A stretch of DNA of 64,000 nucleotides from Massilia sp. (GTDB lineage Bacteria > Pseudomonadota > Gammaproteobacteria > Burkholderiales > Burkholderiaceae_D): contig NZ_DAMAGA010000008.1 in the NCBI RefSeq assembly GCF_031995545.1, positions 27,818 to 91,817 of the forward strand, in the 5' to 3' direction. The translations under genes and the position numbers were made by a program. Numbering within the stretch: the stretch's first letter is position 1; each line of letters opens with the position of its first letter. This document shows positions 46,900 to 56,089 of this stretch, one piece after another. The notes beneath the pieces were generated by a model. It did no database searches. It saw only the letters and a program-made list of their open reading frames with translations, and was not told where the DNA came from.

Positions 46900-49026
46900 A
46901 TGATTGAACATATTGACGAGGACAGCATGCAACAGGACACCCAGCCGCAACCCGCGCAGCACCAGCCGCACGACCATGACGATCCCTACCTGTGGCTGGA
47001 AGAGGTCGACGGCGAACGCGCGCGTGCCTGGGTGGCCGAGCGCAATGCCGCTGCCGAGGCCGAGCTGGAAGGCCGCCCGGGCTTCGCGCCGCTGCGCACG
47101 CGCCTGAAGGCGATCCTCGACTCGAGCGAAAAGATTCCCTACGTCGGCGTGCACGATGGCCTGTGCTACAACTTCTGGCGCGATGCCAACCATGCGCGCG
47201 GCATCTGGCGCCGCACCACGCTCGAGCAGTACCGTCAGCCGGCGCCGCAATGGGAAACGGTGCTCGATCTCGATGCGCTGGCGCGCGACGAGGACGAGAA
47301 CTGGGTCTGGGCCGGCGTCGCCTGGCTCGAGCCGCACGGCGCACGCTGCCTGGTGTCGCTGTCGCGCGGAGGCGGCGACGCGCACGTGGTGCGCGAATTC
47401 GACCTGTCCGCGTGCGCCTTCGTGGCCGACGGTTTCACGCTGCCGGAAGCGAAAAGCGACGTGTCCTGGATCGACCGCGACACCCTGTACGTCGGCACCG
47501 ACTTCGGCCCCGGCAGCCTGACCGAATCGGGCTACCCGCGCATCGTCAAGGAGTGGCGCCGCGGCACGCCGCTGGAGCAGGCCATCACCGTGTACGAAGC
47601 GGCGCCTGATGACCTGGCCGCCTCCGGCCATCAGGACAACACGCCCGGCTGGGAACGCGCCTTCATCCAGCGCCAGATCGACTTCTATACCAGCGAACTG
47701 TTCCTGCGCCGCGGCGAGCAACTGATCAAGATCGACAAGCCGCAGGACGCCAACGCGTTCGCCTTGCGCGACCAGATCGTGATCGAACTGCGCTCCGACT
47801 GGGACATTGGCGGCCGCACCTATCCGCAAGCCGCGCTGCTGGCCACCGGCTTCGATGCCTTCCTGGATGGCGGGCGCGACTTTGAGGTGCTGTTCGCGCC
47901 GACCGCTGCCACCTCGCTCGACGGCGTCTCGGTCACCAAGACCGCTCTGCTGCTGACGGTGCTCGACAACGTCAAGAACCGCGTGGTGGAGCTGCAACGC
48001 ACCAACGGCCAGGCGTGGCAACGGCGCGACGTCGACGTGCCGGCCTTCGGTGCGCTGGGCGTGGCGGCGCTCGACTCCGACAATTCGGACGACTATTTCC
48101 TGACCGTCACCGACTTCCTGCATCCGACCACGCTGTACCTGATGACGGCCGGCGGCGACACCCGCACGCCACTGAAGTCGATGCCGGCCTTTTTCGACGC
48201 GGCGCCGTACGACGTGGCCCAGCACACCGCCGTCTCGGGCGACGGCACGCCGGTGCCCTACTTCGTGGTCACGCGCCGCGGCCAGGGTCCGGGGGAACCG
48301 AATCCCACCCTGCTGTACGGCTACGGCGGCTTCGAGGTCTCGCTGAAGCCCTTCTACAGCGGCATGACCGGCGCCGCCTGGCTCGACCAGGGCGGCACCT
48401 ATGTATTGGCCAACATCCGCGGCGGCGGCGAGTTCGGCCCGCGCTGGCACCAGGCCGCGCTGCGCCAGCATCGCCAGCGCGCGTTCGATGACTTCATCGC
48501 GGTGGGCGAAGACCTGGTCAGGCGCGGCGTCACCACGCCGGACAAGCTCGGCATCATGGGCGGCAGCAATGGCGGCCTGCTGGTGGGCGCGGCGCTGACC
48601 CAGCGTCCCGACCTGTTCGGCGCCGTGGTGTGCCAGGTACCGCTGCTCGACATGCGGCGCTACCACGAGCTGCTGGCCGGCGCGTCCTGGATGGGAGAGT
48701 ACGGCGACCCGGATGATCCGGCCGACTGGGAATACCTGGCGCGCTATTCGCCGTACCACAACGTGCGCCCGGGCGAACGGTATCCGCTCGTGTTGTTCAC
48801 CACCTCGACCCGCGACGACCGAGTGCATCCGGGCCACGCGCGCAAGATGGCGGCGCGCATGCTGGACCAGGGCCACGACGTGCTGTACTGGGAAAACACC
48901 GAAGGCGGCCACGCCGGCGCGGCCGACAACGAGCAGACCGCGCGCATGTGGGCGCTGACCTATACCTTCCTGATCGAGCAACTGGGCGCGCAAACGGATC
49001 GTTCTCCGGTTCAAAAGGTCAACTAA
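46900..49026 (+). CDS. Prolyl oligopeptidase family serine peptidase (S9A)
   Basis: [10 protein letters not shown]-terminal signature, beta-propeller region, catalytic GGSNGGLL, C-terminal D and H regions ([15 protein letters not shown]). Confidence 0.92.
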
Positions 49027-49607
49027 GAGGCCAGTAATCGCGGCGCATACAACGCGTCCCAGGTCGGTTCAATCTCGACATACAGCGCCACCGCGCGCTC
49101 GATGCCGACCTGCTGCGGCGCGCCGATACGGGTGATCACCACCCCGGCACGGCGCAGCATGCGCTCGATCGCCACCGTGGTCACGGTGACGTAGCGCTGC
49201 AGCCCCTGCTCATGAGCGTGGCGGATCACCGCCTCGATCGATTCCATCGTCATGTCCGAAAAGCCGAAGCCGGCCGCGCCTTCGGTTTCCAGCGCAAAGC
49301 GCGACAGTTCCCATATCTGCGGATCGCTTGGCGCTTCCTGGCCGTCGAGCAGCTGCGGGAACGAATCCTTCAGCATGTACGGCCCTTCGGTCGGCAGCAA
49401 TCTCCAGCAGCCGCGCAGGGTCTCGCCCTCGCGCATCTGCATGTAGCGCGGCTCGAGCGCGTCGTAGCCGTCGATCTCCATGCCGGACAGCACCGGCACT
49501 TCCCACCCCAGGCGCCCACGGAACACCTTGGCGCGCAGGGTATGCATTTCGCACAGTTCGTTCGATTTGAAGGCGCCACGCGGCGCGATCCGGATTTGCA
49601 TGCTCAT
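49023..49607 (-). CDS. Acyl-homoserine-lactone synthase (LuxI family)
   Basis: LRAKVFRGRLGWEV, DGYD and WELSRFA are hallmark LuxI motifs. 194 aa. Confidence 0.92.
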   Translation of the reverse strand: MSMQIRIAPRGAFKSNELCEMHTLRAKVFRGRLGWEVPVLSGMEIDGYDALEPRYMQMREGETLRGCWRLLPTEGPYMLKDSFPQLLDGQEAPSDPQIWELSRFALETEGAAGFGFSDMTMESIEAVIRHAHEQGLQRYVTVTTVAIERMLRRAGVVITRIGAPQQVGIERAVALYVEIEPTWDALYAPRLLAS

Positions 49608-49705
49608 TTGTCAGCCCCCTCGTGTGCTATCGCAATGTGATGAACCGTCAGGTGAAGAGAAAATGCAGTGCGCATCAATTTTTTATGCAAGTTGGGTAGA
49701 ACGGT

Positions 49706-49725
49706 AACTATCAGGTCTGATAGGT
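49706..49725. promoter_or_regulatory. lux/las-type box in the luxI-rsaL divergent intergenic region
   Basis: aaCTatcaggtctgatAGgt has a CTATCAG-GT-CTGATAG dyad and fits CT-N12-AG. If centred at about -42.5 for luxI, TAAAAA (complement of 49680-49685) falls at -10. Confidence 0.55.
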
Positions 49726-49811
49726 GTTGAGTCATGTCGGCGGTGCAATACTTTTGTCCATCAACCCGATTTAACTTTCCGCCCCGCTTGTTCACCACGA
49801 AAGGAACTACC

Positions 49812-50084
49812 ATGGCAAACGATCTGATGTGCGACGCACTGGCTGCCGAACTGCAAGCCCACCAGGGCATCCCGGGCGCCGGTCCGATCCGCCTGGCCCC
49901 GCACGAGCTGCGCCGCCTGCGCATCGGCAAACGCGAAAGCCAGGAAAAATTCTGGGGCCGCTTCGGCGTCACCCAATCGAGCGGCAGCCGCTTCGAAACC
50001 GGCCTTGCCATCCCTGCTCCCGTGTCGATCCTGTTGCGCATGTACATGAACGGCAAGCTCAACGATGGTGATCTTCAGGGATAA
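49812..50084 (+). CDS. rsaL: RsaL-like HTH repressor of quorum sensing (90 aa)
   Basis: Divergent from luxI and convergent with luxR, the lasR-rsaL-lasI topology. ESQEKFWGRFGVTQSSGSRFETGLAIPAPVSILL resembles the RsaL/XRE HTH signature as I recall it. ATG 49812 after aaaggaa. Confidence 0.68.
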   Translation: MANDLMCDALAAELQAHQGIPGAGPIRLAPHELRRLRIGKRESQEKFWGRFGVTQSSGSRFETGLAIPAPVSILLRMYMNGKLNDGDLQG

Positions 50085-50925
50085 GCATCCCCAGGGCGAT
50101 CGCCTTGACCACCGCCTGCTGGCGGGTGTTCACGTCAAATTTTTGACGGACATTCGCCAGGTGAAAATTGACGGTGGCCTCGGAACAGCTGGTAATCCGG
50201 GCGATCTCCCATGACGACTTGCCGGCCATGACCCATTGCAGCACTTCGAGCTCGCGCTTGGTCAGGCGCGGCAGGCCGGCGCGCTGAGCGTCGATCTGGT
50301 GTTGCGGCACGTGGGGCCGATGGTGTTCCTGGTGCTGAGTGTGCTGGGCGTGCTGTGTCTGCTGGTACTGTTGATGTTGCTGGTGTTTCTGGAGCGGTTG
50401 CGGCGTTTCGTGGCGCAACAGCTCTTCGCGGAAACGGGCCGAGGACGCCAGCGCATAATCGCGCACCAGCGTCAGAGTAGGCAGCGCGGCGGCGGCGGCG
50501 CGGCGCGCCTCGGCATCGGGACGGGCATCCGAGGCGAAACTGAGCACCCCGAACTCGCCCTGCGGGCCGTGCACCGGCAGCGTCACTCCGCTGCGCAGGC
50601 CATGCATGCGCGCTTCTTCGTACAGCGCCTGCTGGTCTTCGGAGGCGAAAGTGCCCGGCTCCCATACCAGCGGCAGGCTGCTCGACAGCGCGTGCGACAC
50701 GGTCGGGTCGACATAGGCGAAGCCGTTGCGGTCGTAGCGGTTGCGCCAGCTTTCCGAATAATTGCTGCGCAAGAAAGCCGATTCGAACGGCGCATTGCGC
50801 GACGCCACCACCCCGTACAGCACCCGATCGAAACCCAGACCGCGCGCGAGCGTGTACAAGGAGTCACTCCATTCGGAAGTGTCCTTGGCCTGCATCAGCT
50901 CGAGTAATAGAGCGGTATCAATCAT
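50059..50925 (-). CDS. LuxR family autoinducer-binding transcriptional regulator with a His/Gln-rich linker
   Basis: N-terminal autoinducer-binding domain (YVDP, WEP, GVLSF). C-terminal HTH LTKRELEVLQWVMAGKSSWEIARITSCSEATVNFHLANVRQKF. 288 aa rather than the usual ~240. Confidence 0.9.
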   Translation of the reverse strand: MIDTALLLELMQAKDTSEWSDSLYTLARGLGFDRVLYGVVASRNAPFESAFLRSNYSESWRNRYDRNGFAYVDPTVSHALSSSLPLVWEPGTFASEDQQALYEEARMHGLRSGVTLPVHGPQGEFGVLSFASDARPDAEARRAAAAALPTLTLVRDYALASSARFREELLRHETPQPLQKHQQHQQYQQTQHAQHTQHQEHHRPHVPQHQIDAQRAGLPRLTKRELEVLQWVMAGKSSWEIARITSCSEATVNFHLANVRQKFDVNTRQQAVVKAIALGMLIPEDHHR

Positions 50926-51187
50926 GGGGGCGGAATTTTGGTCAACACCTGTATGCTAGTTGCTTCGACCCCCTCCAAAATTCACGGAAATTAACAATCG
51001 GCCACGAAAATTGCACCCGTTTTGCATGTTGTCGTGCATAAACAACAAGCCAAATCGCAATCGTGCGCCGTGACCAGGTAATTTCTACTACCCTGCGCAC
51101 GAATAAATTTCATATTTGCAATTATTTGTAACCGAGAGTAGCCTCGCTCTTCACTTCACCACCCCACCGAAACAAGGATCACAGTCG

Positions 51188-56089
<4,902 letters not shown>

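Follow-up and report, generated by a model that had tools for sequence, protein, structure and literature searches.

We analysed a 64,000-nucleotide stretch of the genome of a Massilia sp. (assembly GCF_031995545.1, contig NZ_DAMAGA010000008.1, positions 27,818 to 91,817 of the forward strand; hereafter the window, in which position 1 is the first nucleotide). At 49023-50925, it carries three genes, luxI, rsaL and luxR, which very probably represent a chromosomal, vertically inherited Massilia orthologue of the lasR-rsaL-lasI quorum-sensing circuit of Pseudomonas aeruginosa (the R-L-I or 'L1' topology). The DNA between rsaL and luxI contains a single lux box with conserved promoter-like elements on both of its sides. 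Between this box and the predicted luxI start lies an RsaL-type site, O1, with one ATG/CAT half, while a full RsaL-type palindrome, O2, lies over the predicted start itself. The three genes are listed below with their lengths in amino acids (aa); AHL stands for acyl-homoserine lactone and HTH for helix-turn-helix.

49023..49607, minus strand: luxI, LasI-type AHL synthase, 194 aa; PF00765 (Autoind_synth), E = 6.5e-34
49812..50084, plus strand: rsaL-like gene, tetrahelical HTH repressor family, 90 aa; PF22495 (RsaL-like HTH), E = 4.5e-22
50059..50925, minus strand: luxR, LasR-type AHL receptor/activator, 288 aa; PF03472 (Autoind_bind), E = 6.6e-36, and PF00196 (GerE), E = 5.6e-21

Genes and conservation of the locus

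Gene families were called with Pfam profiles at their curated cut-offs, and the locus was compared with a set of 80 related loci from Massilia, Telluria, the Methylophilaceae (Novimethylophilus, Methylotenera), Herminiimonas and Glaciimonas. A preliminary description of this DNA had placed luxI at 49023-49607 (-), luxR at 50059-50925 (-) and the end of an rsaL-like open reading frame (ORF) at 50084 (+), all of which proved right, and the three families to which it had assigned the products (autoinducer synthase, autoinducer-binding and RsaL) were each recovered above the curated cut-off. The order luxR(-) rsaL(+) luxI(-), which it had likened to lasR-rsaL-lasI, is shared by 78 of the 80 related loci in the form luxR > rsaL < luxI >. 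Thus arranged, rsaL is divergent from luxI, and convergent and overlapping with luxR, the two 3' ends sharing 26 bp at 50059-50084. Overlaps of about 20-26 bp between rsaL and luxR were seen in most of the related loci, and such an overlap could permit antisense or transcriptional interference. In the L1 circuits of Pseudomonas, the 3' ends of luxR and rsaL overlap by 10-20 bp (PMC3386692).

The LuxI protein scored 117.5 bits against PF00765 (cut-off 24), over profile positions 7-175 of 183, and among solved structures it comes closest to LasI (1RO5), at E = 1.5e-57 and with 51% identity across 186 aa. The synthase motifs R..F.....W, E-D..D and WELSRF are all present, and the blocks lRa.vF....gW, mEiDgyDal, iWELSRFa, vTvTTv and gIERAVAL are identical to those of 1RO5. 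The Shine-Dalgarno sequence of luxI, GAGGGGG, is found at 49615-49622. The product is probably a long-chain 3-oxo-AHL, as predicted from the similarity of LuxI and LuxR to LasI and LasR.

Both domains of LuxR were likewise unambiguous, with 123.5 bits for PF03472 (cut-off 23) and 74.4 bits for PF00196 (cut-off 23.5), and the best solved relative is LasR (6MVN; E = 7e-60), to which the ligand domain is 44% and the HTH 56% identical. Tyr56, Trp60, Asp73 and Ser129, which hydrogen-bond the AHL head group in LasR structures, are identical in the Massilia protein, as are Arg61, Thr75, Trp88, Ala105 and Leu110. The lining of the acyl pocket differs from that of LasR by the changes Y47F, Y93F, F101L, L125F and A127V. 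The interdomain linker measures 55 aa (residues 166-220; window positions 50266-50430) versus 11 aa in LasR, and holds a 44-aa Gln/His-rich low-complexity insert encoded by an imperfect tract with a 9-nt period. Among 78 orthologues, this insert was found only in the present genome and, in a shorter form, in Massilia sp. YIM B02443 (locus L001); the 76 others are 240-250 aa long. The short linker of about 10 aa that is typical of such receptors (about 240 aa) is absent here. A long linker is atypical for LuxR, yet it is no criterion of the domain family.

The RsaL-like protein matched all 45 positions of the 45-position profile PF22495 with 77.5 bits (cut-off 27), and the PDB contains a single match to it, P. 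aeruginosa RsaL (5J2Y), with E = 2e-14 and 49% identity across 55 aa. In the crystal structure of the latter, each ATG half-site is read by Gln38 at the A and by Arg43 at the G, the two halves being related by a central two-fold axis, and Arg20, Gln27, Glu28 and Ser42 contact the backbone (PMC5314801); an RsaL site is therefore expected to read ATG-N7-CAT. When aligned to 5J2Y, the Massilia protein keeps all of the DNA-contact residues R20, Q27, E28, G35, Q38, S42 and R43, with the substitutions Ser37 to Thr and Asn46 to Thr. Translation of rsaL most likely begins at 49812, with an ATG that has AAAGGAA in front of it; this 90-aa form is preferred because a ribosome binding site is present and because the alignment with the relatives runs from residue 1. 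A longer ORF (ATG at 49734, 116 aa) was discarded, its start lying upstream of the conserved rsaL -10 element (49744-49752). The gene is present between luxR and luxI in 79 of the 80 related loci and shows the highest conservation among the three genes: identity to YIM B02443, which also carries the best LuxI relative, reaches 99% for RsaL, compared with 93% for LuxI and 84% for LuxR.

The closest relatives of LuxI in public genomes all belong to Massilia and Telluria, followed by Novimethylophilus, Methylotenera, Herminiimonas and Glaciimonas. Within the genus, a LuxI homologue (E <= 1e-20) occurs in 71 of 110 species genomes, 4 of these 71 genomes having matches of only 37-38% identity. The genes of the locus have a GC content of 63-65%, compared with 65.4% for the genome, and the flanking genes are shared with related loci, namely an S9 prolyl-oligopeptidase gene in 49 loci and a poly-HAMP kinase gene in 40. 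Recent horizontal acquisition was ruled out on these two grounds, and the locus is best regarded as an old chromosomal resident. On the luxI side, the stop codon of luxI (-) overlaps by 4 bp (49023-49026) that of the convergent S9 prolyl-oligopeptidase gene (46900-49026, +), and no terminator was found between these two genes. A tblastn survey of the genome returned one luxI, one rsaL and one AHL-type luxR; at E <= 1e-3 it revealed no second AHL system or LuxR solo, except for one GerE-type HTH fragment.

The rsaL-luxI intergenic region

The region between rsaL and luxI spans 204 bp at 49608-49811, as the preliminary description had given it, and has a GC content of 47.5% against 65.4% genome-wide. 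Its elements, with start sites predicted about 7 nt past each -10 hexamer, are the following (no strand is assigned to the lux box and to the operators, whose sequences are given on the luxI strand):

49744..49752, plus strand: predicted extended -10 of rsaL, TGCAATACT (TGn + AATACT); conserved island, predicted start near 49759
49706..49725: lux (las-type) box ACCTATCAGACCTGATAGTT; core 49708-49723, centre 49715.5; predicted site of the LuxR-AHL dimer
49684..49698: O1, TACCCAACTTGCATA, half-degenerate las-position site, 9 nt past the lux-box core
49678..49685, minus strand: predicted luxI -10 in an A/T tract, either TAAAAA (49680-49685) or AAAAAT (49678-49683), 22-24 nt from the core
49662..49676: O2, palindrome GATGCGCACTGCATT, ATG-N7-CAT; predicted main RsaL operator, covering roughly -3 to +12 relative to the predicted luxI start

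The 20-mer previously noted as a candidate lux box, AACTATCAGGTCTGATAGGT, was found at 49706-49725 and indeed fits CT-N12-AG; its core, CTATCAG-GT-CTGATAG, consists of two 7-bp arms that are perfect inverted copies of each other, separated by 2 bp. We searched for the core pattern CTA[GT]CA-N4-TG[AC]TAG over the 5.53-Mb genome and in three random sequences matched to it in size and dinucleotide composition. One perfect occurrence was obtained in the genome and none in the random sequences, while in 75 of the 80 related loci the pattern recurs with no more than one mismatch and at a fixed distance to the flanking elements. The box of locus L070 has diverged (four mismatches), and locus L065 has no upstream sequence. 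Two further loci carry insertions that have disrupted or displaced the box. The insertion in Massilia oculi HYUMC2021 (L004:2650-3000) measures about 165 bp and has either replaced or shifted the lux box together with most of the operator region, and that in Massilia sp. BSC265 (L024:2705-3000), about 130 bp long, is located in the 5' untranslated region of luxI. Both are possible natural promoter knock-outs.

For phylogenetic footprinting, the luxI-upstream regions of all loci were anchored on the dyad, and the 75 distinct sequences were aligned. Four conserved islands stand out from otherwise variable intergenic DNA. The first, AGTATTsCA, is located towards rsaL, at 23-25 nt from the box core, and reads TGnAATACT on the rsaL strand; the second is the lux box itself, with the consensus gCCACCTAgCA-N4-TGcTAGTt; the third, TTGCATgA.tC.T, begins 17 nt past the core and includes a -10-like hexamer in which A2 and T6 are mostly kept; the fourth is the palindrome ATGCg...tGCATA. 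The single box is accordingly accompanied by -10-like elements at 22-24 nt from its core on the luxI side and 23-25 nt on the rsaL side. The class-II promoter geometry proposed earlier for luxI is thus supported by conserved -10-like elements at the class-II distance on both sides of the dyad. In numerical terms, the earlier placement also holds: with the dyad centre (49715.5) at -42.5, the luxI start falls at 49673, and the hexamer TTTTTA (49680-49685), which is TAAAAA when read on the luxI strand, covers -12 to -7. The predicted geometry is consequently class II on both sides, the box being centred some 42.5 bp upstream of the predicted luxI start (near 49673) and some 43.5 bp upstream of that of rsaL (near 49759).

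Beyond the locus, the core with at most one mismatch had 4 matches in the genome as compared with 10-15 in random sequence, so that a regulon search yielded no enrichment. One of the one-mismatch matches, CTAGTAGAGCTGATAG (C37:160-175, in the same genome and outside the window), sits in an A/T-rich stretch about 110 nt upstream of an ORF for a CHASE-like membrane sensor, and is a candidate second LuxR target. Another lies in an apparent rRNA promoter region.

The operator consensus and geometry of RsaL were taken from published work (PMC5314801, PMC10746200, PMC8424335), and the lasI promoter sequence used for comparison from published text (PMC8424335; bioRxiv 10.64898/2026.05.13.724834). The consensus reads TATGnAAnTTnCATA and the lasI site TATGAAATTTGCATA (PMC5314801); as read from the published pLas sequence, the lasI operator is offset by 9 nt past the box core (PMC8424335). 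The ATGCA/GCAT repeats that had been singled out as the likely RsaL site are present at 49663-49690, and the region indeed holds RsaL-type half-sites, which could now be placed more exactly as O1 and O2. O1 matches 10 of the 12 specified consensus positions, and only 26 matches this good were found in 5.53 Mb, which corresponds to an expectation of about 0.001 per 204 bp. Its promoter-side half-site is intact, and its box-side half reads ACC instead of ATG. O2 is the sole ATG-N7-CAT in the intergenic region, the genome-wide rate of this pattern being 0.18 per kb.

The same division recurs among the relatives. A palindrome of the same spacing is found 29-33 nt past the box core in 70 of 77 loci, that is, 21-22 bp (two helical turns) beyond the las position, whereas at the las position itself the promoter-side CAT is kept in 68 of the 77 loci and the box-side ATG in 3. 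These three loci (L075, L077 and L078) come from Herminiimonas, Glaciimonas and a Methylophilaceae genome. A metagenome-assembled genome of the Pseudomonadota (L037:2880-2960) has both a full las-position palindrome, TATGCAAAATGCATG, and a downstream one, TATGCATGTTGCATA, and could represent a transitional state between the two layouts.

Proposed circuit and alternative explanations

In the circuit that we propose, LuxI would make an AHL, probably a long-chain 3-oxo-AHL, and LuxR, upon binding it, would dimerise and occupy the single lux box at 49706-49725. LuxR-AHL would then activate the back-to-back luxI and rsaL promoters, both devoid of -35 elements, which would result in positive feedback on signal synthesis together with induction of the repressor. 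An RsaL dimer would in turn bind O2 (49662-49676), overlapping the luxI start, and possibly also O1 (49684-49698), two helical turns off, shutting luxI down and capping the AHL level. In the rsaL-lasI system, one lux box activates both genes and RsaL binds adjacent to it (PMC10746200).

Several points weigh against this proposal. The luxI -10 hexamer is weak in this genome and ambiguous by 1-2 nt, and a consensus sigma-70 scan of 48900-51200 gave no match and no -35; this is expected of class-II, activator-dependent promoters, but it does not count as positive evidence for them. The 44-aa Gln/His linker could alter or impair the LuxR receptor. The geometry of repression may differ from the model, because O1 is without one ATG half and O2 lies 22 bp further downstream than the operator of lasI. 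Finally, the literature searched contained no published AHL data on Massilia.

With respect to the operators, it is possible, and we put it forward as a tentative suggestion, that in Massilia and Telluria, and partly in the Methylophilaceae, the predicted RsaL operator has moved by two helical turns, from between the lux box and the -10 to a position over the luxI start, leaving a half-site behind. Another possibility is that O1 and O2 are each bound by an RsaL dimer, in a cooperative manner and on one face of the DNA. If the relocation is true, RsaL could block luxI without displacing LuxR or shutting its own promoter, 86 bp away; the 'regulatory symmetry' of P. aeruginosa rsaL-lasI would then be broken, with sustained RsaL, no autorepression and changed feedback dynamics.

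The same circuit might also operate with another geometry, in which the -10 of luxI would be the second TGCAT(A) motif, i.e. the right half of O2, with the box near -64.5 (class I) and the start near 49651. O2 would then separate the box from the start, which is the arrangement of the lasI operator, and the lasI -10 overlaps the right half of its operator; moreover, a distance of 22 bp (two helical turns) separates the two TGCAT motifs, and the Massilia consensus tGCATAacTT resembles lasI GCATAAATT, which carries the lasI -10. Some TraR-dependent promoters do use class-I placement. We nevertheless consider this geometry unlikely: the motif here and in the nearest relatives reads GCATTTTCT, a poor -10, whereas the first TTGCAT element stands at the exact box offset of the lasI -10 and mirrors the rsaL-side -10, 23 nt from the core, and a single dimer serving both directions best fits -42.5/-43.5. 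More improbable still is a locus that is intact but impaired or rewired, such that the 44-aa linker uncouples ligand and DNA binding by LuxR, luxI being expressed at a basal level or LuxR responding to metal or pH. The restriction of the insert, among the 78 orthologues, to this genome and, shortened, to one close relative speaks for such a view, as does its nature as an imperfect low-complexity tract with a 9-nt period. However, LuxR retains both of its domains intact, its pocket and HTH residues are conserved and the reading frame is kept, and the lux box and both operators are intact too, unlike the truly disrupted promoters of L004 and L024. Interdomain linkers of LuxR-type proteins are, besides, flexible.

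A last alternative takes the small HTH protein for an Xre-like regulator or antitoxin, unrelated to the circuit and encoded here by chance, with no role as luxI repressor and with the ATGC/GCAT repeats acting as promoter elements only; this appears very improbable. There is a weak NCBIfam match to an MqsA-type antitoxin HTH (E = 6e-4), far below cut-off, and RsaL homologues occur also outside quorum-sensing loci (PMC3386692). Against these stand the score of 77.5 bits with PF22495 (cut-off 27), the sole PDB match to RsaL and the retention of the base-reading residues. The gene is, furthermore, better conserved than either of its neighbours luxR and luxI and retains its place between them in 79 of 80 loci, and a palindrome with the exact RsaL half-sites and spacing is conserved alongside it.

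Comparison with known quorum-sensing systems

The R-L-I (L1) topology, the luxR/rsaL overlap and the role of RsaL are well described in Pseudomonas and Burkholderia (PMC3386692), and arrangements of luxI, luxR and rsaM in Massilia are mentioned in survey literature (PMC10710839); no experimental study of a Massilia las-type system was found in the literature searched. As a complete but ordinary unit, the locus leaves the understanding of such circuits unchanged. It does provide a testable map of an AHL circuit (the box, two promoters and two candidate operators) for Massilia, a genus common in soil, rhizosphere and air dust, and since about 60% of the species genomes of the genus carry an orthologous synthase, this map should transfer widely. 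In addition, the related loci make up a natural series of operator placements, with the full las site in Herminiimonas and Glaciimonas, the downstream palindrome plus half-site in Massilia, and both full palindromes in at least one locus, L037, which could be used to study operator position in relation to quorum-sensing homeostasis.

The ppuR-rsaL-ppuI system of P. putida, pfvR-rsaL-pfvI of P. fuscovaginae and braR-rsaL-braI of Burkholderia/Paraburkholderia belong to the same R-L-I class, with RsaL as the built-in repressor of the synthase gene, and in some members of this class the convergent luxR and rsaL ends overlap (PMC3386692). These systems have genetic and biochemical support, of which the literature searched contained none for the Massilia clade. 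Nearer relatives are the orthologous R-L-I loci of Herminiimonas, Glaciimonas and one Methylophilaceae (L075, L077 and L078), which have the same lux box. Unlike in Massilia, the las position of these loci is occupied by an operator of the complete las type (TATGCAATTTGCATA and similar), and L075 and L077 are without the downstream palindrome; because the full las-position operator is retained, these three represent a P. aeruginosa-like state that differs from the Massilia layout.

The nearest solved relatives of all three proteins are those of the P. aeruginosa las system (LasI, RsaL and LasR), with which the locus shares the gene order and orientation and the overlapping 3' ends of luxR and rsaL. 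Each system has a single box in the rsaL-luxI region, that of Massilia being identical to the lasI operator ATCTATCTCATTTGCTAGTT at 14 of 20 positions (bioRxiv 10.64898/2026.05.13.724834), followed by a 15-mer resembling the RsaL consensus at the same 9-nt offset and by a GCAT-containing -10 region at the same distance. The two differ in their hosts, Massilia being a betaproteobacterial soil genus and the locus the sole AHL system in the genome, and in their proteins, as the N-terminus of Massilia RsaL is 17 aa longer and LuxR carries the 44-aa Gln/His linker insert. At the DNA level, the box-side operator half is lost in Massilia (TATG to TACC), the A/T-rich spacer AAATTT of the lasI operator is replaced by the G/C-rich CGCACT, and an ATG-N7-CAT stands 21-22 bp further downstream, over the predicted start, where lasI has nothing. 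This displaced operator, a computational prediction, is a modest variant. Overall, the control DNA of the Massilia locus appears to be laid out almost exactly as that of P. aeruginosa las, except that the full predicted repressor site lies two turns of the DNA further downstream.

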